A DNA stretch of 64,000 nucleotides from Scenedesmus sp. PABB004 (Eukaryota), in assembly GCA_014905635.1 (NCBI GenBank), contig CM026547.1, forward strand, positions 2,046,001-2,110,000. The letters run 5' to 3'. Below are positions 3,612 to 60,869 of this stretch, piece after piece. Numbering within the stretch: the stretch's first letter is position 1; every line of letters starts with the position of its first letter. Made by a program: the position numbers and the translations under genes. Under the pieces are notes generated by a model, which was given only the letters and a program-made list of their open reading frames with translations, was not told the DNA's origin and did not search any database.

Positions 3612-6600
3612 TCGACGACAGCGGCGACAGCGACACGGAGCACTCCGACGACGACATGGACGACGGCGACGCCGCGCCGGGCGACACCGAGGAGCACGGC
3701 GAGGACGGCGAGCACGGTGAGGGCATGAGCTCGCCCAGCCTCACGGAGGACGAGGACGGCAGCGACGTGCACGGTGCGCCGCCGCGCCGGCCGTGCCCGC
3801 GCCAGCGCAGACGCGGCACGCCCCGGCCGGCCGCAGGCGCGGCACGCGCTGCCCGCGCCCGCGCCGACCGCGGCCGCCCGCACGCGCAGGGGAGAGCGAG
3901 GAGGGTGGCCTGCTGCTGCCGCACGGCGGCGCCTTCATCGACGCGGGCGCCGCGGCGGCGGCCAACGGCGGCCCGGGGCACGCGCTCGACGCGCTCGACA
4001 GCGACGACGACGACGACGAGGGCCACGCCGGGCACGGCTTTGACGAGGGCGCGCTGCTGCTGCCCGACGACGTCGAGCTGCACCACATGATGCCGCCAGC
4101 CCTCGACGGCCACGCCCAGGAGGTGCGCTTGGCCTCGCCGCCGCCGCCGCCGCTGGCGCTGCCGCCGCGGGGCGCCGACCCGCCGCGCCGCCGCGCCGCG
4201 CCGCGCCACCGCGCCGCGCCGCGCGCAGGACGGCGTCGTGGTTGACCCGCTGGACGACGAGGTTGAGGAGGAGGAGGAGGAGGAGGAGGAGGATGAGTAC
4301 CTTGACGAGGAGGCGAGCGACGACGAGGAGGGCTGGGCCGACGGCGACGGCCTGCCGGGGGCGTTTGACCACGTCGGCGGCGGCCGCGGCCTGCCCGGCG
4401 GCTGGGCGGCGATGGAGGGCCTGGATGAGCTCCCGCCCTCGCTGCTCATGCACCCGGGGCACGGCTTTGGCCGCCTGCCGGGCGGGCGGCGGCTGAACAT
4501 GTTCCGCCCCAGCCCCGGCGGCGCCGGCGCGGGCGTGTGGGACGACGCCGACGCGGGCGACGCGGCGCAGGACGCGCTGCTCGGCGGAGGTGCGCGGCGC
4601 GGGGTCGGCGGCGGGGGCGGGCGCGGGCGCGGGGCGGCGCGCGCTGGCCTGGACCGCGCCACACCGAGCCGCCCCCGCCGCTGCCCTGCGGCGCCGCGCC
4701 GCGCCGCGCAGCCCCCGTGCTGACCATGCAGATGCTGCTGTCCCAGCTCGGCCTGCAGGCGGGCGGCGGCGGCGGCGTGGCGCTCGTCGGGCCCAACGGC
4801 CGCGCGATGCGCCTGTCCGGCACGCTCTCGGTCGAGGGCGGCGACGCCAGCGGCGGCGGGCGCGGCCCGGGCAGCGACGCGGTGAGCGGCGCCATCATCT
4901 CGGCGATGCAGTCCCTCACGCTGCAGCTGCTGCCGTCGCAGCACCGCCTGCTGGCGCTGCCGCCGCGGCTGCCCGCGTCGGAGAGCGCCGCGCTGCTCGC
5001 GTCGGCCGGCGGCGCGGCGGCGCCGGCGCCCGGCGACGCGGCGGGCGGGGCCTGCGCGGCCAGGCGAGCCACGTCAACGCGCTGACGCGGCTCCTGAGCC
5101 GCATGCCCGACGGCGGCGGCGCGTACGGGCGCGACCGCTCCGGGCGCATGGCCGTGCGCGGCACCGGCGGCCTGCTGCTGGGCGGCGGCGGGCTGCTGCA
5201 GTCGCCCGCCAACTTCCTGCAGAGCGTCGAGCTGCTGCAGGCGGCGGGCGGCCTGGGCGGCGGCGGCGGCGGCATGCTGGCCGACCTCGACAGCACGGTG
5301 TGGGACGAGGCGGTCAGCCAGCTGCTGGACGCGCTCGGCCCGGGGGGCCCCGCGCGGCAGCGCATGGGCCTCTCGGTGCAGGGCCCCGCGCGCAGCGGCG
5401 CCGGCGCCGACGACGCCGGCCTGGACCCACGTGAGCGCCACCGGGGCGCGCGCTGGGGGCTGCGCGGCGCGCGCCCGCGCGCCGCATCCGCTCGCACGCA
5501 GCAGCGCTCACGCGGGCTGCGGCCGCCGCCACGCGCAGGGTCGCTGGAGTCGCAGCTGCTGTCGCTGCTGCGCAGCCAGGCGCCGCCCGCGCCGGCAGCG
5601 CCGCCAGCAGCGCAGGAGGCTGTGCCTGGCGACGCGGCGGCGCCAGCGCAGCCAGCCACGGCAGCCGCAGATGCGGCCGAGGCCGGCGGCGGTGCGGCTG
5701 CGCTCGCCGCGGGCCCCGTGGCCGCGCCCAGCGCGGCAGCGGCTGCGACGGCGCCCGTGCCGCCGGCGGCCACGCCGGCGGCGGCCGTGGCGCCGTCGGC
5801 CGCGCCGGGCAGCTCCGCCCGGGCGGGCGGGGCGCGGCGCATGCTGACGGAGGACGTCTTTGCCGCCGCGTTTGAGGCGGCCATGCGGGACGACCCCATC
5901 CCGCCGCCGGCGCGGGGCGCGCCGGCCGCGCAGGCGGCGGCCCAGGAGGAGGCCCCGCCCGCGGGCGACATCGCCTCGCACCCCGTGGACGTGACGCCCT
6001 CCGCGCCGGGCTCCCCGTCGGGCGCCGCCGGGCAGGCGCCCGCGCAGATGGACACGGAGGACGCCGGCCAGCCCTCGCCCCGCGCCGCGGCGTCGCCGGA
6101 CGCGCCCGACGCGCCGGCCGACATGGAGGCCGAGGGCGCGGGCGCAGACGGCGGCGGCGGCGCGCTGCACGAGGCGCTGCGCGAGGCGGCCGCGGCGGCT
6201 GAGATCGACCTCGCCTTCCTGGAGGCGCTGCCGGAGGAGCTGCGCGTGGAGGTGCTCGCCGCGCGCGGCGTCGAGGTGCACCTGCCGCAGCCCGCCGGCG
6301 CCGCGCCGCCAGCAGCGGCGCCAGCGCCGCCCTCGGCCGAGGCGGCGCCCCGGCCGAGCGCGCCGCGCCGGCTGAGCCGGCGGCCGCCGAGGCGGGCGGC
6401 GCGGGCGCCGCGCCGGCGCCCGCCGCGGCTGGCGACGCCGCGGCCGCCGCGTCGGAGGCAGCGGCCGCCGGCGCGGGCAGCGGCGCGCCCGGCGGCGGCG
6501 GCGCGCCCGGCGGCGCGCCGGAGCCGGGCGAGGCGGGCATCGACCCCGAGTTCCTGGCGGCGCTGCCCGAGGACATCCGGGAGGAGGTGCTGGCGCAGCA

Positions 6601-9600
6601 GCGCGCGGAGCAGCGCGCCCGCGCGCGGCCGCCGCGCGCGCGGCGGCGGCGCGGCAGCAGGACATGAACCTGGCGGACCTGCTGGCGGCGATGCCGGACG
6701 ACGCGCGTGCCGACGCGTTCACGCAGCTCGATGACGGCGCGCTCGCGCAGCTGCCCGCGCAGGTGACGCGCGGGGCGGGCGGGGCGCGCCCGCCGCGGCG
6801 CCTGCCGCCGCGGGGCTGCTGGCAACGCGTGCGCCGCGCCCCTGCACTCACGGCCCCCACCCACCACCCGCCCACGCCCGCGCCCGCCCGCAGATGCGCG
6901 CGCAGGCGCAGGCGCTGCGGGAGCGCGCGGTGCGGCAGATGCAGCAGGCGCAGCAGGCGGCGCAGCACCAGCAGGCCGCGGCGGCCGGCATGCAGCAGGC
7001 GGCCGATTTCCCGATGTGGCGGCCGCTAGTGGACGGCCCGCTCGGCGGCGGGCCGGGGCGCATGGCGCTGCCGCTGCTGGGGCCCAACGGCCTGCCGCTT
7101 GGCGGCGGGCGCGGCACCTTTGTGAGCGTCTCCGCCGCGCTCGGCGCTGGCCGCGGCGGGCGCGGCGGCGCGTCGCGCGCGGAGCTGCTCGAGGCAGCGG
7201 CGCGGCGCGAGGCGGAGCCGGAGGGCCCGCCCGTGCTGGAGGAGCCGGAGCTGGCGGTGCTGGTTCAGCTGCTGCGCGTGAGCCTGCCGCTGAGCAAGGC
7301 GCACCTGCAGAAGCTGCTGCTCAACCTCGCGGGGCACAGCGTCACGCGGCAGTGCCTGCTGAGCATGCTGCTCGGCCTCGTCCGCGGCCTGCCCGGCGCG
7401 GCGGCCGGCGGCGGCGAGGCCGACGAGCAGCTGGGCGACGCTGGCGAGGCGGGGCGGGCGGCATGGACGTCGCGTCCGACGACGAGCGCGGCGCGCCGCC
7501 GCCCCGCGACCTCGCGGCCGCGCTCGACGCGGCCGTGCCGGCGCCGGCCGAGCCGGGCGCGGGCGGCGCGGGCTCGCCGCTGGGCGGCGGCGCTGGCGGC
7601 AAGCCGGCGGTGGTCGCGCGGCGCGTGCTGGACATGCTGGCCTTCCTCGCGCGGCACAGCGACAGCGTGTCGCGCCAGCTGCTCAGCCTGCGCGCGCCCG
7701 CGGCGCCGCCGCCGCCGCGCGCCGGCGACAAGGGCAAGGCGCCCGCGGCGCCCGCGGGCGGCGCGGCGCCCGAGCCGCGCGCGGTGGAGGTCCTGCTGGG
7801 CCTGCTGGCGGCGCCGCTGTGCCAGCGGAGCGTGAGCCTGCTGGAGCAGCTCATGCTGCTGCTGGAGGTGGTGCTCATGAGCGTGCAGCGCCACGACGCA
7901 GCGCAGGCCGTGCTGCAGTCCGTGCGCAGGCAGAGGGAGCTGGAGGCGGCGGCCGCCGAGCGCCGCAAGCAGCAGCAGCAGGCGGCGGCGACGGCGGCGG
8001 CGTCGGAGCAGGCGGCGGTGCAGGAAGCAGCAGCGGACGCTGGCCAGGCGGGCCAGCAGCAGCCAGAGCAGGCACCACCGCAGCAGGCGGCGGCAGCCGC
8101 TGGCGGCAGCGAGCAGCCAGCACCGCCGGGGCTGGCCCCAGGCGCTGCGCCGTCGCAGCAGCAGGAGCAGCAGCAGCAGCAGCAGCAGCAGCCGGCGTCC
8201 ACGCCCTTCCAGGCGGCGGCGGGCGCGCAGGAGCAGCAGTCGGCGGCCAAGGCGGCAGAGCCGCCGCCGCCCGGCGAGCTCGCGAGCACGCTTGCCAGCA
8301 TACCGGCGCCGCTGCTGTCGCAGCTGCCGGGGCTGCTGGCGGCCGAGTCGCTGAGCGAGCCGGCGTACGTGAGCGTGGCCAAGGTGATCAAGCTCGTGGT
8401 CGAGGCCGCGCCGGCGCGCCTGCCGCTCATGCTGGGCGTGCTCGTGGACGGCGTGGCGGGCGTGGGCGCGACGCTGCTCACCTGCCTCGACGCCGCGGCG
8501 GCCAAGGGCATCGACGCCGACGCGGAGCTCGCACCCACGATCGGCACCAAGAGCGGCGTCGTGCTGCGCATGCTGCACGCGCTGCAGGGTTTCCAGGCCG
8601 AGGTCGCCGCGTGGGCAGAGGCGCAGCAGCAGGAGCAGCGGGAGCGGGAGCGGGAGACGCAGCAGCAGGCGGGCGCCGCCGGGGCGGCGGCCGCGCGGCG
8701 GCCGCGGCGGGCGTGGCGTCGAGCAGCGCCGCGGCCGGCAGCAGCGCCGCGGCCGGCAGCAGTGCCGCGGCCGGCAGCAGCGCCAGCGCGGCGCCGCCGA
8801 GCAGCCTGGACCCCGCCGCGGCGGTGGCGGAGGTCGAGGGTGCCGTCGCGCTCATCGCGGCGCGCACGGCGCCGCTGTGGGCGAGCCTGAGCGCCGCCAT
8901 CCTGCGCGTCGAGGACAACCTGCGCGCGGTGCTGCCCGCGCACGGCATGGCCGGCGGCGAGACCGCCGGCAGCGCGGCGGCGCGGCTGCTGCCGCCCGGC
9001 GCGCAGCAGGTGCTGCCGCTGGTGGAGGCGTTCTTCGTGCTGTGCGCGCTGCGCAAGGCCATCCCGTCGCCGCCCAGCCAGGCCAAGGACCTACTCGCGG
9101 CGCCCAGCCTCGACGCGCACGCGCTCGGCGGCGGCGGCGGCGGCGGCGAGCCCGCCGGCAGCGGCGACGGCGCGCGCGGCACGCCGCCGCCGGGCACGCC
9201 CGCGGGCGCGCTGCGCCGGCTCGGCTCCGCCGCACCCGAGGGCGACGCGGGGTCGGCGCCGTTCCTGCGCTTTGCGGAGCGCCACCGGCGGCTGCTCAAC
9301 GCCTACATCCGGCGCCACACGGGCCTGCTGGAGAGCTCGCTCGCGCCGCTGCTGCGCGCGCCGCGGCTCATCGACTTTGACAACAAGCGCGCCTACTTCA
9401 GGTGGGGCGTGCGTGCGTGTGTGTGTGTGTGGGGGGGGGGGGAGGCTGTGGGGGGCTGGGGGCGCCGCAGCCCGCCCGCCGGCGCTCGACGCGCGCTCAC
9501 GCTGCCCGCCGCCGCCGCGTCCGCCGCCGCCGCGGGCGCGCGCGCAGGTCCAAGGTTCGCTCGCCCGACGAGCGCAGCTACGCGGGCAGCCTGCGGCTGG

Positions 9601-11115
9601 TGGTGAAGCGGAGCGCCGTGTTTGAGGACTCCTTCAACCGCCTGCGCGGCAAGAGCGCGGCGGAGATGCGGGGCAAGCTGAGCGTGTCGTTTGTGGGCGA
9701 GGAGGGCATCGACGCGGGCGGCGTGAGCCGCGAGTGGTACCAGGTCATGGCGCGGGAGATCTTCAACCCCAACCTCGCGCTCTTTGTGAGCGTGCCCGAG
9801 GGCGGGACGACCTTCCAGCCCAACCCCGCGAGCGTCGTGCAGAGCGCGCCGGGCGTGAGCCACCTCGAGTTCTTCACCTTTGTCGGCCGCCTCGTCGGCA
9901 AGGCGCTGCACGACGGCCAGATGCTGGACGCCTACTTCACGCGCTCCTTCTACAAGCACATGCTCGGCGCGCCGCTCACGCACGAGGACATCGAGGCGGT
10001 CGACCCCGAGTACTACAAGAACCTGCGCTGGATGCTGGAGCACGACATCACGGACGTCCTCGACCTCACCTTCACCGCAGAGTCAGACTTCTTCGGACGC
10101 ACCGAGGTGCGCGGCAGGGCACGCGCCAGGACGCGGCGGCGCGGCATGGCGCGCGTGCGCATGCTCGCACCGCGGCGCGGCGCGGCGCCCGACGCGCGCG
10201 ACCGCCCCGCCCCGCCCCCGCGCGCCGCGCAGGTGATCGAGCTGGTGCCGGGCGGGCGCGAGGTCAAGGTGACTGAGGCCAACAAGCACGCGTACGTCAA
10301 CCTCATTGCCCGGCACCGCATGACCACCAGCATCCGCGCACAGATCCAGGTGCGGCCCCGCCCGCCAGCGCGCGCGCCCACCGCCGCCCGCGCGCCGCCC
10401 GTCGCATCCTGCCCCCCCCCCCCTCCCCACACACAAGCACACTCACCTCCCCGCCCCGCCCCGCCCCGCCCCGCCCCGCCCCGCCCCGCCCCGCCCGCCC
10501 CGCCCCGCCCCGCCCCGCGCCCGGCCAGGCGTTCCTGGAGGGCTTCTGGCAGCTCGTGCCGCGGGCGCTGATCAGCATCTTCAACGACCACGAGCTCGAG
10601 CTCCTCATCAGCGGCCTGCCCGACATCGACGTCCCAGACCTGCGCGCCAACACCGAGTACAGCGGCTACACGCCCTCCAGCCCCGTCATTCAGTGGTTCT
10701 GGCAGGTCGTGGCAGACATGGACAAGCAGGACCTCGCGCTTCTGCTGCAGTTTGTCACAGGTGCGGCCCCACGGCTGCCGCGCCCGCGCGCCACGACGCG
10801 ACGCGGCGCGCGCGGGCGCCGCCGCTCCGCCGCCGCCACCGCGCGGGCCCTGACGCCGCGCGGCCTCTGACGCGCCCGCGCGCCTCGCCCGCAGGCACGA
10901 GCAAGGTCCCGCTGGGCGGCTTCCGCGCGCTGCAGGGCATCAGCGGGCCGCAGCGCTTTCAGATCCACAAGTCCTACGGCGCCACCGACCGCCTGCCCAG
11001 CGCGCACACGTGCTTCAACCAGCTCGACCTGCCGGAGTACGACTCCAAGGACCAGCTCGCGGAGCGCCTCGCCATGGCCATCCACGAGGGACACGAGGGC
11101 TTCGGCTTCGGCTGA
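1..11115 (+). CDS. UPL1: HECT E3 ubiquitin ligase, UPL1/HUWE1 family (5'-truncated, multi-exon)
   Basis: HECT domain motifs: [53 protein letters not shown], and [16 protein letters not shown] (catalytic Cys), ending GFGFG* at 11115. Ubiquitin-binding repeats [14 protein letters not shown] and [14 protein letters not shown] at ~6200-6600. [10 protein letters not shown] motif and an acidic region. Several frameshifts in GC-rich exons. Confidence 0.95.
10449..10516. repeat. (CCCCG)n pentanucleotide microsatellite in a HECT-gene intron
   Basis: Visible ccccg tandem run. Confidence 0.85.
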
Positions 11116-52227: not shown

Positions 52228-52603
52228 ACGCGGCGCTGGCCCGTGCTGCGGGTGCTGGCCGGCGGCCCTCGCGCGGTCGTCGCCGTCACCGCACGAAGAA
52301 GGAGGCAGCTCGCCCTGTCGCTGGTCCTCAACACCACGCAGCGCAGAGGGTCATCCTCTCTCGCTGGCCCGAGGCCGCGCACCCCGGGCGCGGAGTGCCG
52401 ACGGCGGCGCGCGCGCGCCTCTGTCCCGCCGCGCGGCGCGGGTCGGGCGCGAGCGCACGCTCTCTCTGCGGCCGCGCCAGCGCGCTGCGCGGCCCACGAC
52501 GCTGCGGCGGGCAGGCTGACGGTGGTTTGGACGTGCTACACAACCGAAGGCGTAGCTGCCCCCGGGGCCCGCTGGGCAGCCCTGCACCGGGCACCGCAAC
52601 GCA

Positions 52604-53037
52604 CTAGGAGCGCGCGACTTCTGAACGGCCGCGCGAGGCGCGGCCGCCACCAGCAGGCAGGCTCCAACAGCAGCACGACAAAACCGGGGCGCGGCCAGCA
52701 CACCTTGTTCAGGTGGCCTGCTGGTGTTCTTTATTACTAGCCGCACACACACGTGTGTGGCGCCCGGGGCCGCTTGCCCCCAGACGCGTCGGGCGTCCCG
52801 GCGGGACGCCCCGCGAGGGCGCAGCGTGCTGCTGTGCACACGGTCATCGGCCGCACACACACCACACATGAGCAGACGCGCAGGCAGGTCCTGAGCAACT
52901 CGGACGCAGGCGCCGCTCAAACCCATTTAAGCCCGGCACCCGCCGCGACCGGGCACCGGCCGCCGCCGGGGCGCGCGCCCCGGCGGCGGCGACGGCTGGG
53001 ACCTCGGACCTCCGACCTCGGGACCTCAAACTCAACT
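52604..53037 (-). ncRNA. Candidate Fanzor omegaRNA scaffold region
   Basis: Immediately 3' of the Fanzor stop. Perfect 32-nt palindrome 52959-52990, stem 52791-52811, stem 52766-52780, palindrome 52746-52759 and stem 52626-52646. Confidence 0.45.
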
Positions 53038-56000
53038 TCAGCCCGCCCCTGGCTCCCAATCCATATCGTCGCCGTCAGACTGGGGCGGCGTGAGCTCGCC
53101 CCCGCCGCCCCGCCCGCGCCCGCCACGCCCGTGCCGGCCGCCGCCCCGGCCCCGCCCGCCGCCGCGGCCGCACCCGCCGCGGTCACGCCCGCGCGTGGCG
53201 CGCGCGGCCGCGCGCACCGCGCGCGTCGCCGCCGCGCCGGCGGTCGTGCTGGCCAGGCCGACCTGCGCCTCGGTGAAGCCGGCCGCCAGCAGGCGCTGGC
53301 GGTCGGCGTTCACAAACGTCTGCGCCAGGCCCAGCGCGGCAATGTTGGCCGCCGCGTTTACGTCGCGATTGAACAGCAGCGGCCGCGGCGGCACGGCGTC
53401 GGTGCGGCAGGTGCCGTAGCACTGCCGCACCTTGAAGCCGTCGCGCTTATTCATGCCGGGCGCGGCGTTGGTGGTGGCCGCCATGCAGGCGTGGTGGACC
53501 TGGGAGGTCCAGCACTTATTCACAATCATGCAAACACAATACCCATGGCGCTCGCCAAACCTGACGAGCGTCTTGACCGGCGCGTCCTGGGGGCGCGCGA
53601 TGATCGACCCCCGCCCGGCGGACGCGCTCCCGACAAACAGCACGGCCGCCGGCGCGCGCGCGCGGTGCTCGACGCGGCGCCGCAGGTATCCCAGGCGCCC
53701 GCGCCCCTGCCTGAAGAAGGGCGTCCAGCGCCCGCGCACCGTATGAAAGGTCGTGTTGGTGCACGTGTCAAAGTTGCGAATGCGCTAAAAAACCGGTGCA
53801 TCTCCTTGTCGTTCAGCATGTGCACCCGAAACTCCCACGCACACGCATGCATGCAGCCGTAAACACAAAATGCACGGTCAAACAGGCCCACGCGCGCGCC
53901 CGCCGCGTCGGCGGCGGCCAGGAAGCTGCCGCAGAGCCGCGGCGCGCGCGTGGCCAGGCCCTCCTGCGCGCGCGCAAACGTCCGACGTGCCCCCGCCCCC
54001 GGCCCCCTCCGCCCCGCGCACCCGGGTTTCTTGGTTGCGTGTGCGGTTATTGAATGCTGATGCGTCCCGATACCCCCGCATTGAGAGCGTCACCACGTCG
54101 GCGCCGCCCCGCGCGTCGTGCGCGGCGGGGCAGCGGTGCTGCGCGGCGGTGCGGTGCCCGCGGCGCGTGCAGCCGCAGGCAGGGTGCGACAGCGCCCGGC
54201 ACGCGGCGATGTCGCCGAGGCCGGGGTCCCAGCCCCACGCCAGCGTGCGCCCCAGCGCCGCCACGGCCGCCGGCGCGGCCGGCCGGGCGGGGTCAAACGC
54301 GGCGTCGAGGACCGCGCCGCCGGCGGCGAGCGCGGCCTGCGCGCGCGCGCGGTCGTCGGCCTTGAACGCGCGGCGGTCGGCGGCGCCGGGCCGGGCGGGC
54401 CGGCGCCAGGGCGGCAGCGGGTCGCGCGACGGCGGCGCCGCCGCCGCTGCAGCCGCCGCCGCCGCGGGGTCGGGCGCCGGCGCCAGCCCGGGCTCGGCGT
54501 CGCTCGAGCCCGGCTCGGCGTCGCTCGAGCCCGGCTCGGGCGCCGGCGCCGGCGCGGGGGCAGCCGGGTCGGCGCGCGCCCGCATGACACATGCATCGTA
54601 TCCATTTGTGCAAAGCTGGCCGGACGCGCGCCACGTGCGGGGTGCTGAGCCCGTCGCGATCAAGCCAGTCCGCCTCACCCTCGAGGTCAAACCCGGGGCA
54701 CGCGGCGCGCTGCAGCTCGAGCGTGTCGCGGTGCAGGTGCCCCTGGGCAGTCTCAAACAGGTGGAGGTGAACCCGCCCGTAGTGCTGCCGCGGCTGCAGC
54801 GAGAAGCCGCGGCGCCCCGCGAGCGCGTCGCAGCGGCCGCGCGCCTCGCTCAGCTTGCGCAGGCGCGCGAGCAGCGCGTCGTCCACGCCGGGGGCAAACG
54901 CCGCCGCGCGCGCGCGCGGCGCCGCGTCGCCTGGCAACCCCGGGTTGCGCTGGCGCAGGGCGGCGATGGCGCTGTCGGCCTGCAGCTCGGCCGCGCGGCA
55001 CGCGGCCAGGCCGTCCTCCAGCACCTCCGCCGCCAGGTGCTGGTAGAGGACCGCCGCGTCGGCGTCCAGCCGGTCCAGCAGCTCGCCCGCCACCGCCAGG
55101 CTCTGCGGCGCCGCCGCCGGCAGCGCCGCCGGCGGGTGCTACGCGCGCTCCTGCGCGGCCGCCGCAGCGACATGATCGCCGAGGTGCCGCCCGGCAAAGC
55201 GCAGCGCGCGCGCCCGCGCCTCGCCCAGCTGCTGGCCCGCGCCGGCGAGGGCCGCGTGGGCGGCCTGCGCGCCGGGCCAAACTGCAGCCAGGGGCCCTGG
55301 CGCCGCCTGCTGCTGCCACGCGGCCGCCTCGAGCTGCTCGCGCGCATCTGCCAGCGCGCCCAGGGCGGCTGCCATCTGCTGGCACGCGGCGCCCAGCACG
55401 GCCTCGCGCAGCGACCAGTCGGCGCACGCCGCGGCGGCGGCCGCCGCCGCCGCGGCGTCCGCCGCCGCCGCGTTGCCCGCCGCGGCCGCTGCCGGCTGGC
55501 CCCGAGCGGCAGCGGCGCGGCGGCGGGCAGGGCCGGGCGGGTCGCCCTGAAGCGTTCCAGCTTCGCCGGCCCCCATTCCGTCGCCGCCGCCTTGGCCTTG
55601 CCGCCGTCGCGCAGCGCCTTCTGCAGGCGCGCCTGGCGGTGCTGCGCCTGCGTGCGGTAGCGCCGCTCGCCCGCAGCGCGGGGGCGCGGCGACGGCCGCC
55701 CGCGCTGCACCTCCGCGAGCGCCGCCTGCCTGGCCGGCCTGCGGGCCTCGTGGAGCTCGTGGCGCGCGACGCGCTGCGCCTGCTGGCTGACGCGCTCCGC
55801 CTCGCGCGCCAGCCACTGCGCCTGGTGCACGTGCGGGTAGCCGCCGCGCCGGCGCGCGACCAGCGCGTCGGGCAGCACGTCGCCGCCAAGCCGCACCGCC
55901 AGCGCAGCCAGGCGCTGCTGGGCGGCCGCCATGTCGGCCTTGAGCTGCTGCAGCGCCGCGAGGCGCTGTGGTGGCGCCGACGGCCCGGGCACGCTCGCGG

Positions 56001-57948
56001 CGCGCTGCGCCACGGCCCGCGGCGTGGCGGCGAGCTCCAGCAGCGGCAGCCCCTGCACCTGACGCACCACGGCCGCGCCTGGCGCGCGGCGCCGCCACTC
56101 CCCCACTGCCGCCGCCTGCAGGCGCTGGGTGAAGTAGTTGAACAGCAAGCACTTCTGCAGGTCGTTGAACGCAACCGCTGCGTCGGCCTCGCGGTGGGCC
56201 GCGTCTGCCTCGCCCTGCTGCCGCTGCGCCTGACGGAGCGCGTCCAGGCGCTGCGCGTGGCTCGGTTGTTGGGCCGGCTGCTGCTCTGCGTCGTCGTCGG
56301 CACCGGGGTCGGCCGGCGCGCCCGCGGGCGGCGGCGCCTCCATCGCCGCGCGCCAGCCGCCGTCGCCGCCGCCGCCGCCGCCGCCGCCGCCAGCGTGCGC
56401 CGAGCCGCGGCCGGCACGCAGCCACGACAGCAGGTCCGCCGTCACGCCCTGGTGGCCGGCCGACAGGCCCAGGGCCTGCAGGTCCTCCGCGCGGCCGGCG
56501 GGCGGCCGGCGGTTCCGCGCGCCGGCAGCGGCGGTCGCCGCCGGCCCGCCGGGCGCCGCGTCGCCGTCGCCGGCTGCGGCGTCGGGGTCGTGCTGCGGCG
56601 GCAGCGGCCGCAGCAGCTCGAGCCGCAGCGCCAGCGCGTGGCGCCGCAGAAAGTCCAGCGCGCGGCGCGCCTCCGCCTCGCCGCCGCCGCCGGCGCGGCG
56701 CAGCCGCGCGGCGGCCTGGGTCAGCCATGTGGCAGCCGGCTGCCACGCCGCGTCCCACGCGGCGGGGCTCTCCGCCAGCACGGCGCACACGAGCGCGCCG
56801 CCCAGCTTGGCGCGCTCGCGCGCCGGCGGGCAGCGCGCGCCTGCCAGGTTGGCGGCGAGGCAGACCAGCAGGTCGGCCAGCTTGCGCAGCCGCGGGTGCC
56901 GCGCGTGCAGGCGCACGTTAAGCGCAAACAGCCGGGTGTAGCCGTGCGCCAGCTCCTCCAGAAGCGTGGGGCTCACCCAGCGCGGCAGCTCCACCGCGGC
57001 CGCGCCCGTCGCCGCCCAAAAGAGCGGCAGCATGCGCTGCAGCTCCCATGGGGTGCGCGTTGCGCACGCCTCATGCTGCCGCCCTGGCAAGCTGGTGACC
57101 GCGAAGATCAGGTCCTCCAGCGCGCGCTCGCTGCCGGCGACCCAGCGCAGGTAGTCGGAGCACGCTGCGGTGGTCACGGGACCGTCTCGCAGCAGGCCCT
57201 GGCCGGCGCGTGGCACCTCGTGCCCGGCCACACGCCTGCGGGCGCGGCAGCGGCGGCGGGGTCGGCGCGCGAGGCTTGGGGCGGCGGTGGCGCCACGCGT
57301 GCGCGCGCGCGTGCGCGCTGCCGCCGCCGCGCCGCGCGGGCACTCACGCGCAGGCGTAGTGAGTCATGAGCTCGTGCGCCTGCCGCGCCATGTAGGTGGC
57401 CTTGCTCAGCAGCGTCACCAGCTGGTTGATGAGCTGCATTCGCGTGTCGACCAGCGCCGCGGGCAGGGCGGGCCGCCCCACACGCGCCGCGCGCGCCAGC
57501 GCGCTGCGCAGGCGGCGCACCACCGTGCCTGCGGGGGCGCGGCGCAGCGGCGGTCGTCGGCCAGCCTGCGCGGCGCGGCGTGGTGGGCAGTCGTGGCGCC
57601 GAGCCCGCCCGCCCCGCTCACCGATCCGGGCGCTCTCCTCTGCCCGCTCGCGCTTGGTGCGCGGGCCAGCCTGCCAGTGCCCGCCGGCCGGCGGCGCCGG
57701 GCGCTTGCGTGGCGCGGGCGCGCGCTGCTGCTGCTGCTGCTGCTGGTGCGCCTGCTGCTGTTGCTGCTGCTCCTGCCCCGGCTCCTGCTGCTGCTGCTGC
57801 TGCTGCCGCGCCGGCTGCTGCCGCGGCGCCGGCGCCGGCGGCGCAGCCCCCGGCGGCTCCTCCGCCGCGGCGCCCCTGCGGCGGCGCTTCCGGCACCTCC
57901 GCGCGCTGCCCGAGCTGCCGCTGCTGCCGGCGCTGTCGTTGCTGCTGC

Positions 57949-57983
<35 letters not shown>

Positions 57984-59730
57984 TCGCTGTCCAGCGGCGC
58001 CGCGGCGCCCTTGCCCTTGCCGCGGCGCTTCTTGCGGCTGCGCCGCCGCTGCTGCGGCGGCTGCGGCTGCGGCTGCGGCTGCGGCTGCGGCTGCTGCGGC
58101 GGCTGCGGCTGCGGCTGCGGCGGCGGCTGCGGCTGCTGCGGCGGGCCCGCCGCCGGGCCCCCACCTCGTCGCTGCCGGCCGCGGCGCTGCCCGCGGACGG
58201 CCCGGCGCTGGCGCCGCCCGCCGCCGGGGCGCCGCCCTCCTCGCCGCCGCCGCCGGGCGCCGCCTGCGAGGCCGCCGCGCGCCAGGTGGCAAAGGGGCCG
58301 GGCGCCCGGCGCACCGCCTCCATGGCCGCCGCGCGGTCGGCCTCGCGGCAGGCCTGCGCGCGGCGGCGCAGCTCCTTCCAGTCGGCGTCGCCCACGGGCT
58401 GGCCCGCGAGCTTGGCGGGGTCCTTGGCGGTGTCGATGCCGCGCGCGGGCGGCGGGCCCGGGGGGCCGCCGCTGCGCGCGCCGCTCGCGCCGCCGCCGCC
58501 GCCGACGCTGCTGGTGGTGCTGCTGGTGCTGCCGCTGCGCGCGCCGCTCGTGCCGCCACTGCGGCGGCCGCCGCCGCCGCCGCCGCCGCTGGCGGCGCGG
58601 GCGGCGCGGCCGGCGACGCGGCGCGCGTGCAGGTCCGCAAAGACCACGCGCTGCTCGGCGGCCGCCACGGCCTTGGCAGACGGCGGGGCCGCCGCGGCGC
58701 GCGCCTTGGACGCGGCGAGCTCCGCAGCTTCCTCCTCCGACTTGGCCCAGGCCGCCGCGGTGGCAGCCGCAGCAGCGCTCGCGGCGCGCTGCTCCGCGTC
58801 GCGCCGCGCGGCCGCCTCGGCCGCCTCGCGCGCCGCGCGCGCGCGCGCCGCCGCGCGCCGCAGCTCGTCGGGCGTCTCGGCGCACCCCGGCGGCGGCTCG
58901 CGCAGCACGTCCGCGCGCACGAGGCCGACGCAGTGGTTGATCGTGGCGTCCTCGAGCGCCGCGCCGTCGAAGCTGGGCGCAGCGGTGGCGGGCATGAAGT
59001 ACGCCGCCACCTCGCGCGCCTCCTCGTCGCACACCACCAGCTGCTCGCCGCGCTCCAGCGCGGCGAGCACCGCCTGCGGCGGGTGCTCCGAGACCAGCCG
59101 CAGGCCGTTCTGGTCGCAGAGCAGCCCCAGCTCGGCGGCGGTCAGGTAGGTGCTGCTGTCGAGCAGCGCCTCCGAGATCTCCCTGATCGCGAGCTGCTGC
59201 GCAGCAAAGTCGCCGCCGAGACGGTCGCGCGCCATCAGCACCGCGGCGTGCGCCTCGCGGCTCGCCGCGGGGTCGGCGAGCGAGAGCACGAGCGCCGCGA
59301 GCTGGGGGTGCAGCTCCTCGTGCGCCTCGCTGTCCAGCTGGCGCCGCGTGTGTGGCGGGAAGTCCGCCACGTCGGCGCCGGGCGCCAGGCGCAGCAGGTG
59401 CAGCAGGCGCCGCCGCACCGCGGCGAGCAGGTGCAGCGCGCAGTTGCCGTTCGGCACGCCGTGGAAAAACACCACGCGGCGCTCGCGCAGCCCCGGCGCA
59501 GCAGGTGCGCACGCGTGCACGTTGGGGGCTTTATCTCCTCGTCCTCCTCCCCTGCGGAACGGCGTCGGAGTCGCAGTCGGGCGTGGCAGCGGCGGGTCAG
59601 CCGGCGCGGCAGCGGCGCGGCGGCGGCGCGGGCGCTCGCCGGCGCCCATCATCTCTGCGGCCGCCGGCGCGGCGGCGCGGCGGCGCGGGCGCTCACCCCC
59701 GCCCATCCTTGCGCTCCTCCGCCGGCTCAT
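53038..59730 (-). pseudogene. Fanzor1 (eukaryotic TnpB-like RNA-guided RuvC nuclease) with N-terminal OTU-like domain; intron-containing, disrupted
   Basis: FSLQP..HLHL and SGQLCTNG (TDG-like). RuvC-I WGWDPGL (D at 54226-54228), bridge-helix-like YG...WEFRVH, then LFVGS. RuvC-II VNKCWTSQ, Zn-finger HHAC...CYGTC, RuvC-III NRDVNAAANI (D at 53362-53364). Introns 57529-57621 and 57236-57347. In-frame TAG at 55139-55141 and several frameshifts. Confidence 0.85.
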
Positions 59731-60869
59731 GGCTAGCCGCGGGCGGGCCTGCGCGGGGCGCCGGGCAGCGGACGGCGCGGCGCAGATGTCGATCGACCCC
59801 GCCCGCCCCGGACGCGGCAGCGCGCCGCGGCGGAGCGGCGCGCGTCGGTCGGTGTCGGACGACCCACCCGGACGCCATGGCGTGCGCGACGGGTGCGCGG
59901 GTGCCGCGCGTGGGCGCTGCCACGCTCTCGAAACCTCGCCTCTCGCTGCTGTGACGCCTCTGGAGCCACAGGGACACGAGATGAGCGCGGTAGCACTGGG
60001 GGCTGGGCGGGCGCTCGCGGGGACACCGCCGCGGCGGAGCGCGGGCGGCGGCGGTGCAGCGCTGGACCGCGCCCCGAGCCGCCGCTCTTCAGCCCGCGTG
60101 GGCCGGGCGGGCGCGCGCTGCCGCTCTTGCAGCAGCAGGCGAGGGAGGGCGGGCGGGAGGGCCTCTGCTGAGCGAGGGCAGAGCGAGGGCAGCGCGCAGG
60201 ACGGCGCGGGCGAGCTGGCGGTGGGGCGCGGGCCGGGGCACAGCAGCTCGCGGGGCTTTTGCGCAGGAGCGCCATGGTGGGCCCCGCGCCAGCCCTCCAC
60301 GACGCGCATCATCGGCCCCGCCTGGGCCTCCAGCTCGCGCCAGTGGCTGGGGCGCCGGCTGTTCCGCGAAACGCCGCTGTTCCGCTCGCCCCAGCGGTCC
60401 GCTGCGCTCATTGGCGCGCAGAACGATCCCCCATCGCATTCAGCCCCACGTACGAGGGTCGCACGGACCGACTCCTGCGTTTGCAGCCGGGAGGAGGCTC
60501 CTCTCCACACCTGGACGGCTGCGGCCAAGGCCAGGCATGGCTACCCAGGCGGGCCGCCGCCGGGCCCGGGGCGCCTGACCGCGGGAGCGTCGGGGGCCGC
60601 AACTGATGCAGCGTGGCGCCCAGTCGAGCCGGCAAGGCCTGCGGCGCGTCTCGAGCCATCCGCCGGCGGCGGTCGGCAGCGCGCCCGGGCGTGGAGCCGC
60701 GCCTGAGGTGAGCACGCGGCGGCGCCAGGGCGGAAGACTCAGCGATGCCCGCTGCGTGCCCCTCGCGCGTGCGGGCCCGCCGCGCCCGCCCGCGCCGGCC
60801 TCGGGGCGCACGGCCCGGAACGGGCCGCCCGGAGGCGCGGGCGGGCGCGGCGGCGCGCGGGGACCGAAA

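Follow-up and report, generated by a model that had tools for sequence, protein, structure and literature searches.

Introduction

Fanzors are eukaryotic RNA-guided nucleases and, to our knowledge, little is known about the role of their long, variable N-terminal regions. Here we describe a candidate Fanzor-like gene in a 64,000-nucleotide stretch of DNA from Scenedesmus sp. PABB004 (contig CM026547.1, positions 2,046,001 to 2,110,000), the whole of which is called the window and supplies the coordinates used below. The gene would lie on the minus strand, and its first large exon would encode a domain that a preliminary description took for an OTU-like cysteine protease at the N terminus of the Fanzor.

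Bao and Jurka gave the motif D-X(125,275)-[TS][TS]-X-X-C4 zinc finger-X(5,50)-RD, described Fanzor N-terminal regions as “highly variable” and reported 5-10 exons for the green-algal Fanzor1 genes CRe-1, 2 and 3 (PMC3627910). Fanzors carry proline or glycine at the canonical RuvC-II Glu position and an alternative Glu ~45 residues downstream, and all six Fanzor1c copies of C. reinhardtii contain introns and sit in Helitron2 transposons (Jiang et al. 2023, PMC10530073). OTU modules are recurrent in Helitron2-type elements as well, where they lie upstream of RepHel (PMC11417382). No fusion of OTU and Fanzor in one open reading frame (ORF) appears in the titles and abstract openings of the literature searched. 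The main text of PMC3627910, PMC10288648 and PMC12633428 does not contain the word “OTU”, that of PMC10432273 and PMC10288648 lacks “ubiquitin”, and “protease” occurs in the main text of PMC10530073 and PMC10432273 in purification methods only.

When set beside the published descriptions of green-algal Fanzor1 (CRe-1, 2 and 3 of Bao and Jurka 2013; CrFNuc Fanzor1c of Jiang et al. 2023), the Scenedesmus locus is likewise multi-exon, keeps the order D...TS..zinc finger..RDxNAAxNI, shows Gly where the canonical RuvC-II Glu would stand and has a disordered, basic N-terminal region. Unlike those genes it is far longer (~6.5 kb), has N-K at the rearranged Glu position and HxxC instead of CxxC as its first zinc knuckle, is present as a single copy in the window between host genes, and has no detectable sequence relatives. 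The locus most likely adds one more long gene, rich in introns, to the Fanzor-like genes of algae, with an orphan domain at its N terminus. That the flagged segment is specifically the first large coding exon of such a gene, with multiple introns and extending on the minus strand from ~59.7 to 53.04 kb, stands in our judgment at about an even chance.

The product of this gene would comprise, in order, an orphan alpha/beta domain of ~200 residues, a low-complexity linker with clusters resembling nuclear localization signals (NLS), a helical body, and a core made of RuvC, zinc-finger and RuvC-III elements, all presumably carried by one transcript. As in other Fanzors, the basic clusters would serve for nuclear import. 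The orphan domain would then be an N-terminal addition, specific to this lineage, to a Fanzor1-like protein, and not a demonstrable OTU protease.

A coding exon and a TnpB/Fanzor-type core downstream

G+C content is ~80% across the window (0.75-0.84 per 2-kb step), which leaves all six frames open, so that an open frame alone carries no weight. Real coding frames were located by the G+C content of the three codon positions (GC1, GC2 and GC3). Pfam families found in the ORFs identify the genes of the window as ordinary eukaryotic nuclear genes (HECT with a UBM motif, NAD kinase, DUF92, TFIIA, Y-family polymerase, PCMT, Mad3/BUB1, protein kinase, GrpE, XAP5, 5'-3' exonuclease and PDDEXK_6), and these host genes have GC3 values of 0.92-0.99. 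Within the flagged segment, GC1/GC2/GC3 are 0.82/0.46/0.97 at 58894-59490. From ~59,510, where the periodicity starts, to 58,850, GC3 remains at 0.94-1.00 and GC2 at 0.42-0.52. Because this codon-position composition resembles that of the host genes, the exon is genuinely coding, and its strand and frame are those assigned to it by the preliminary description. The three OTU-like strings listed there are all found where they had been placed, in a single minus-strand frame that corresponds to an ORF at 57415..60528 (1037 aa). The first lies within VVFFHGVPNGNCALHLLAA at 59475-59419, with its Cys codon at 59442-59440, and here Asn indeed replaces the usual Asp of DGNC, giving NGNC. The segment occurs once within the window.

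The exon with the C-terminal core (Table 1) reads ...AVLFVGSAS...IVNKCWTSQVHHAC...CYGTC...NRDVNAAANIAALGL and contains AVLFVGSAS (53646-53620), IVNKCWTSQ (53526-53500, with TSQ at 53508-53500), VHHAC (53499-53485), CYGTC (53421-53407) and NRDVNAAANI (53370-53341). The last of these is the single match in all six frames to the RuvC-III signature D.[ND][AG][AS].N[ILVM]. The exon therefore presents [TS][TS]..zinc finger..RD together with RuvC-III DxNAAxNI in the motif order of Bao and Jurka, and GWDPGLGD, which resembles the RuvC-I Asp motif, lies ~240 codon-equivalents upstream of the C-terminal motifs, introns counted in, a distance that fits the X(125,275) term of their formula if this assignment, made by eye, is right.

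For profile comparison, 107 viral-contig loci with DRDxNAAxNI were collected, the 72 with an ORF of at least 250 residues upstream were kept, and the last ~170 residues of each were aligned. In hhalign this TnpB profile matches 53290-53784 with a probability of 79% (E 1.6e-5) over 75 columns, from the strand before TSQ, through the zinc-finger region, to RuvC-III; profile and query were both picked via the RD..NAA..NI motif, so the score is partly circular, and the alignment extends well beyond that motif. The PHROGs collection adds a weak match to phrog_506 transposase (E 0.018). Neither of the curated models PF07282 and PF01385 recognizes the core; PF07282 reaches E 5.9 with 7.6 bits, well short of its cut-off (26.3). 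NCBIfam gave no match for the core, and a PDB sequence search with the exon returned low-complexity matches only. Searches with the RuvC core fragment found no relatives among 2258 candidates from longer proteins, and none of 70 pattern matches in viral contigs was confirmed. Altogether, a TnpB/Fanzor-type core is very probably present downstream of the flagged exon on the same strand. Its C-terminal TNB/RuvC-III region is like that of prokaryotic and phage TnpB (IS200/IS605 OrfB), whereas the gene differs from TnpB in its introns, its huge N-terminal half and its eukaryotic setting.

The RuvC-II Glu appears to be absent from the canonical position, where Gly occurs in AVLFVG as aligned by eye, and from the rearranged position, where hhalign places the N-K of IVNKCWTSQ opposite IDR of TnpB. 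A nearby Glu in FGERHG is a possible alternative RuvC-II residue. Judged from the missing Glu, in part by eye, the nuclease may be catalytically impaired or repurposed.

Probable continuity between the exon and the core

Coding signal on the minus strand is nearly unbroken from 59,510 to 53,040, with several frame changes. There is no dip in G+C and no loss of periodicity between 59,400 and 57,500, and no other gene or transposase domain lies between the orphan exon and the Fanzor-like core. G+C does dip at ~60.4-60.6 kb, beside the divergent PDDEXK_6 gene, and at ~54.1-53.7 kb; the latter falls within the RuvC domain and is therefore read as an intron. Beside the strong-consensus candidates at 57621-57529 and from the donor at 57347, further candidate introns with canonical ends are GTGAGG...CTGCAG at 54678-54447 and a lower-G+C stretch that ends with CTTCAG at 53711. 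A dynamic-programming splice model, which is crude and shows feasibility only, joins everything in one 1,331-codon ORF with 13 GT-AG introns. GC3 is 0.90-0.97 in nine correctly framed segments of the gene, near the host range, and the gene is thus compositionally at home in this genome. Upstream it is flanked by the PDDEXK_6 gene on the opposite strand and downstream by the 5'-3' exonuclease gene, both ordinary host genes.

From these observations the orphan exon and the Fanzor-like core likely belong to one gene. The placement of the domain at a Fanzor N terminus in the preliminary description holds insofar as the exon opens a unit on the minus strand that bears Fanzor hallmarks in its 3' exons; the fusion itself is likely. 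About 1.2 kb of Ala/Gly/Ser/Gln/Pro/Arg repeats separate the orphan exon from the next exon that scores well. The mostly helical region that follows is presumed to form the N-terminal, REC-like body of the protein, and a search with it against longer proteins found no relatives.

Table 1. Coordinates of features of the Fanzor-like locus, from the 5' to the 3' end of the minus strand.
Feature	Position	Strand	Basis
Orphan domain exon (P0001, 211 aa), carries the OTU-like strings	58879..59511	-	Frame; GC3 0.97, GC2 0.46
NGNC, proposed Cys loop	59440..59451	-	Sole GNC in 127,996 six-frame positions
YLTAAELGLL, proposed variable-loop block	59119..59148	-	-10.3 bits against OTU block profile
TINHCVGL, proposed His loop (His codon 58935-58933)	58921..58944	-	+7.4 bits on 7-column His block
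Ala/Gly/Ser/Gln/Pro/Arg low-complexity linker, ~400 residues	57623..58878	-	Frame tracking, sequence reading
Candidate intron, 93 nt, GTGAGC...CCGCAG, phase-preserving	57529..57621	-	Sequence reading and splice model
Exon TVVRRLRSAL...HELMTHYAC, ends at GTGAGT donor (57347)	57348..57528	-	Frame tracking and splice model
Extended coding region, largely helical and split over two frames, no detectable relatives	54679..57130	-	Coding signal, prediction
GWDPGLGD, RuvC-I-like Asp motif	54211..54234	-	By eye; outside all profile alignments
Exon with TnpB/Fanzor C-terminal core	53290..53709	-	Motifs, hhalign, PHROGs
Gly/Arg-rich C-terminal tail and stop (TGA 53040-53038)	53038..53289	-	Sequence reading

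Sequence comparisons of the orphan domain with OTU proteases

An hmmscan of the 211-residue domain against Pfam found no family at E<=10, and the whole 1037-aa ORF gave none either. The domain falls below the PF02338 cut-off of 23.3 bits, and the family profile accordingly does not recognize it as an OTU. Sequence searches with the domain returned no PDB chain at E<=10, no hit at E<=0.001 among 1.84 billion representative proteins (phmmer) and none at E<=0.01 among 8000 candidates of near length in a word-index search. Pattern matches in viral contigs (4) and metagenome contigs (180) yielded no confirmed relative.

We also compared the domain with OTUs directly. Thirty-three viral loci with DGNC[LF]FRA served as the reference set; after six duplicates and two short ORFs were dropped, 25 were scanned, and the 17 that carry PF02338 supplied an independent OTU profile. 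Against these 17 Pfam-confirmed proteins, hhalign aligned 7 columns around GNC (probability 0.6%), and against six divergent viral OTU-like proteins it aligned 9 columns (probability 0.2%). The best E value of phmmer --max against all 33 motif-bearing viral ORFs was 0.3. When the 17 OTUs were turned into block profiles following the alignment of the preliminary description, the Cys loop scored 3.9 bits, and the variable and His loops gave the values listed in Table 1. By profile the Cys-loop match is not clearly higher than chance: 168 places in the window score at least 0, and the best 25 of these 168 all reach at least 4.4 bits, above the value found here.

The choice of YLTAAELGLL as the OTU variable loop finds no support, given its negative score and two MAFFT runs that preferred other placements, both setting LGGDF rather than YLTAAELG opposite the WGG block of OTUs. 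One run set the OTU His opposite QNGLRLV, the second opposite VRADVL. Since the runs differ, the correspondence of residues with OTUs is ambiguous. The catalytic His of OTUs is usually followed by an aromatic residue and then, at +2, usually by Asp or Asn. The proposed His here is followed by Cys-Val, with no aromatic residue and neither Asp nor Asn at +2; the domain has a second candidate His in SEHPP.

In the course of these comparisons, a group of giant-virus proteins on viral contigs L005, L009, L013 and L026 (also L007 and L029) was seen to carry DDGNCFFSAIFRA...W(V)xEIEV...HYEYF. In this group a helical insert of ~135 residues, which is unusually long, separates the Cys from the WxxE block; its members have no PF02338 match at E<=0.001, and they look like an OTU-like family outside the coverage of Pfam.

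Structure predictions for the orphan domain

AlphaFold predictions of the domain have low confidence, with a pLDDT of 43.9 from the single sequence and of only 51.2 when the 17 OTUs were supplied as an alignment, a deliberately biased threading test. In Foldseek searches neither model has a match at E<=0.001; the best E values, 0.34 and 0.60, are to unrelated folds, and one local match of 25 columns to the viral OTU PRRSV PLP2 has E 3.9 at rank 36. The Foldseek check proposed in the preliminary description therefore returned no significant OTU match, from models too poor for the outcome to count either way. With VIA-align, for which Z values of 7-8 are typical of unmatched models, the alignment-free model brings up helical bundles alone, at Z values up to 6.4, and no OTU stands among its best 50 matches. 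The top row for the OTU-alignment model is an unrelated glycosyltransferase (Z 5.2), above all OTU rows. Taken with the profile tests, which failed beyond GNC, these low-confidence models leave the OTU identity claimed for the segment without confirmation. In lacking a profile match, a WGG..E block and a confident OTU fold, and in having Asn before GNC and Cys-Val after the His, the domain is unlike OTU deubiquitinases.

Evidence for a possible OTU-like domain

A number of observations weigh against the orphan-extension interpretation set out above. First, each of the profile tests was run on a single sequence and is insensitive without relatives; indeed, all available profile and fold tests are weakened because the domain has none. 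Second, GNC occurs only once, and [DN]G[NDS]C only twice, in the 127,996 six-frame positions. A regular expression combining the Cys loop, E block and His matches here alone in the window, although it was written post hoc and is not counted as a test. Third, the secondary structure predicted by the low-confidence models runs from a strand to the Cys at a helix start, through four helices, to strands with the His on the last; the helix right after NGNC has a pLDDT below 65 in both. This predicted order is compatible with a papain-like layout and is not diagnostic of one. Fourth, 12 of the best 50 VIA-align rows for the OTU-alignment model are titled OTU (Z 3.5-4.8), spanning most of the model, and another row, 3von_A, is titled only “ubiquitin protease”. 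As these OTU rows lie below the noise level and come from a model built on an OTU alignment, they are both circular and weak as support. Finally, the single-gene status of the locus is itself founded on composition and a crude splice model.

The sole positive lead comes from the ESM Atlas, where OTU is the sole named family among the matches listed for the whole domain (score 0.91, rank 3) and labels 11 of the best 30. The OTU-labelled clusters carry PF02338 on 18-19% of their members, which are mostly from Nucleocytoviricota (giant viruses). When residues 36-211, without the Cys loop, were used, an OTU cluster was again the sole named one listed (0.89, rank 5). Notably, the family singled out here is the very one guessed in the preliminary description, an agreement not expected by chance from an orphan sequence. 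However, the recognition value of 2109 is under the reliability mark of 2300, and shuffled sequences reach ~0.9 in 4-10% of cases, making these high scores weak evidence. Because the embedding neighbors name OTU, we keep an OTU-type fold in the N-terminal domain as a possible but doubtful reading.

In the alternative that survives best, which we regard as rather unlikely, the Fanzor-like nuclease is joined to a highly divergent cysteine protease of the OTU (papain-like) type, with Cys 59442-59440 as nucleophile and His 58935-58933 as general base. Like OTU deubiquitinases (PF02338, MEROPS C85; for example OTUB1, nairovirus vOTU and the giant-virus OTUs), the domain has (D/N)GNC between a hydrophobic strand and a predicted helix, a His that is predicted to lie on a strand ~170 residues past the Cys, a spacing inside the range for OTUs, and OTU-labelled embedding neighbors. 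Its His block scores positively, while profile support as a whole is limited to 7-9 columns, the variable-loop block scores negatively, the two MAFFT runs disagree on the placement of the blocks, and the OTU alignment barely lifts the structural confidence. Speculatively, such a protease would take ubiquitin or a ubiquitin-like modifier off its targets or process a polyprotein-like precursor. The deubiquitinase activity and the chromatin role proposed in the preliminary description are likewise speculative. All in all, the OTU likeness, which rests on GNC before a predicted helix, one His on a predicted strand and the embedding lead, is not established. A true OTU-Fanzor fusion is unlikely. 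Slightly less likely again is the fuller scenario of a host-adapted, spliced gene that joins a divergent OTU-like thiol protease and a Fanzor-type scaffold, maybe without a RuvC-II Glu, in one chain.

Such a fusion could have originated from the OTU modules of Helitron2-type elements, which carry Fanzor1 in Chlamydomonas. As both OTU modules and Fanzors ride Helitron2 elements (PMC11417382, PMC10530073), an OTU-like module beside a Fanzor has a plausible source, and in sharing a locus with a Fanzor it would be like the modules of Helitron2/Helentron (HLE2) elements. Unlike the arrangement in HLE2 elements, where OTU lies upstream of RepHel, no RepHel, Rep, helicase or other transposase domain was found in window ORFs of at least 150-180 aa. 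Neither terminal repeats nor hairpin element ends were found at 52.0-61.5 kb, where only GC-rich simple repeats occur, and the 64-kb window holds no other copies of the locus.

The frame change in the linker

The preliminary description had linked the domain to the Fanzor by an apparent 1-nt frameshift near 58160. A frame change is indeed present there, but the Fanzor does not follow directly, its RuvC motifs lying 4.7-6 kb downstream. Between ~58,180 and 58,120, within simple CAG/CCG repeats, phase 0 replaces phase 1 as the best coding frame, and both frames are open across this stretch. The sole in-place GT..AG that corrects the phase, at 58164-58136, is 29 nt long and too short to convince as an intron. 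A longer intron, an assembly indel in the repeat and a true frameshift are all possible.

Alternatively, the apparent frameshift could be a boundary between two genes, the first a short orphan or OTU-like gene with a low-complexity tail and the second a Fanzor-like gene that starts in or after the repeats. The frame does change near 58,165-58,120 with only the very short GT..AG to mend it, and the basic NLS-like clusters, which are typical of Fanzor N termini (PMC10530073), begin just after the switch. Yet frame 0 contains no ATG between 59,512 and 57,440, so that a separate Fanzor gene must still start in frame 1 or upstream, and frame 1 runs without a stop as far as 57,415. Moreover, the dip in G+C or loss of periodicity that an intergenic spacer would show is missing, and longer GT-AG introns can bridge the frames. 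Two genes are therefore an improbable arrangement, and a single Fanzor-like gene with an orphan N-terminal exon is the likelier reading.

A decaying relic of a Fanzor-carrying element, with a true frameshift, a dead nuclease and an N-terminal exon outside any functional protein, is slightly less probable still: the locus does lack a RuvC-II Glu, both canonical and rearranged, has HxxC for the first CxxC (compare PMC10530073), needs a small intron to bypass an in-frame stop near 55,141, and is a single copy in the window with no relatives for any part, but it keeps canonical splice signals and codon periodicity over more than 5 kb, with GC2 at 0.46-0.59 against a background G+C of ~80%, which a dead gene would lose by erosion under mutation bias.

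Four basic clusters stand in the linker after the frame change, at 58048-58007, 57901-57872, 57712-57689 and 57661-57635 on the minus strand. They read RRRSRKKRRGKGKG, RRCRKRRRRG, PRKRPAPP and RTKRERAEE, respectively, and resemble the N-terminal NLS described for Fanzors.

Ends of the gene and neighboring features

At the putative 5' end of the gene, a tandem duplication of ~54 nt (80% identical, spacing 57) occupies 59597-59707. It encodes MGGGERPRRR.../MMGAGERPRRRR..., and a GTGAGC donor follows the first ATG-GGC-GGG. Further upstream of the orphan exon and in the same phase, weak coding-like periodicity is seen on the minus strand at 60400-60180 (...MMRVVEGWRGAHHG...). This stretch may be an upstream exon or a 5' untranslated region beside the divergent PDDEXK_6 promoter region at ~60.4-60.6 kb.

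The region after the stop codon is the expected site of a Fanzor guide-RNA (omega/fRNA) scaffold. An Rfam search of 52400-60700 gave no match. The 301 nt after the stop (52740-53040, minus strand) have a folding z score of -2.58, with 2 of 100 shuffles as stable, and there are no copies for comparison. They open with short GAGGTCC-like repeats, and AATAAA occurs at ~52,733.

Elsewhere in the window, a large gene for a HECT-type ubiquitin ligase with the UBM ubiquitin-binding motif lies on the plus strand at 4497-11112, its introns splitting it over several frames. It is an ordinary host gene and shows host ubiquitin machinery at the same extreme G+C.

Implications

The finding is a modest one, and the locus is mainly of value as a marked candidate to revisit. 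If the deubiquitinase-like fusion were true, an RNA-guided and possibly nuclease-dead targeting module would be combined with an eraser of ubiquitin or a ubiquitin-like tag, or with a self-processing protease. It would be the first hint of a Fanzor with an activity that modifies proteins at a site specified by RNA, and it would tie the OTU modules of Helitron2-type elements to their Fanzor passengers.

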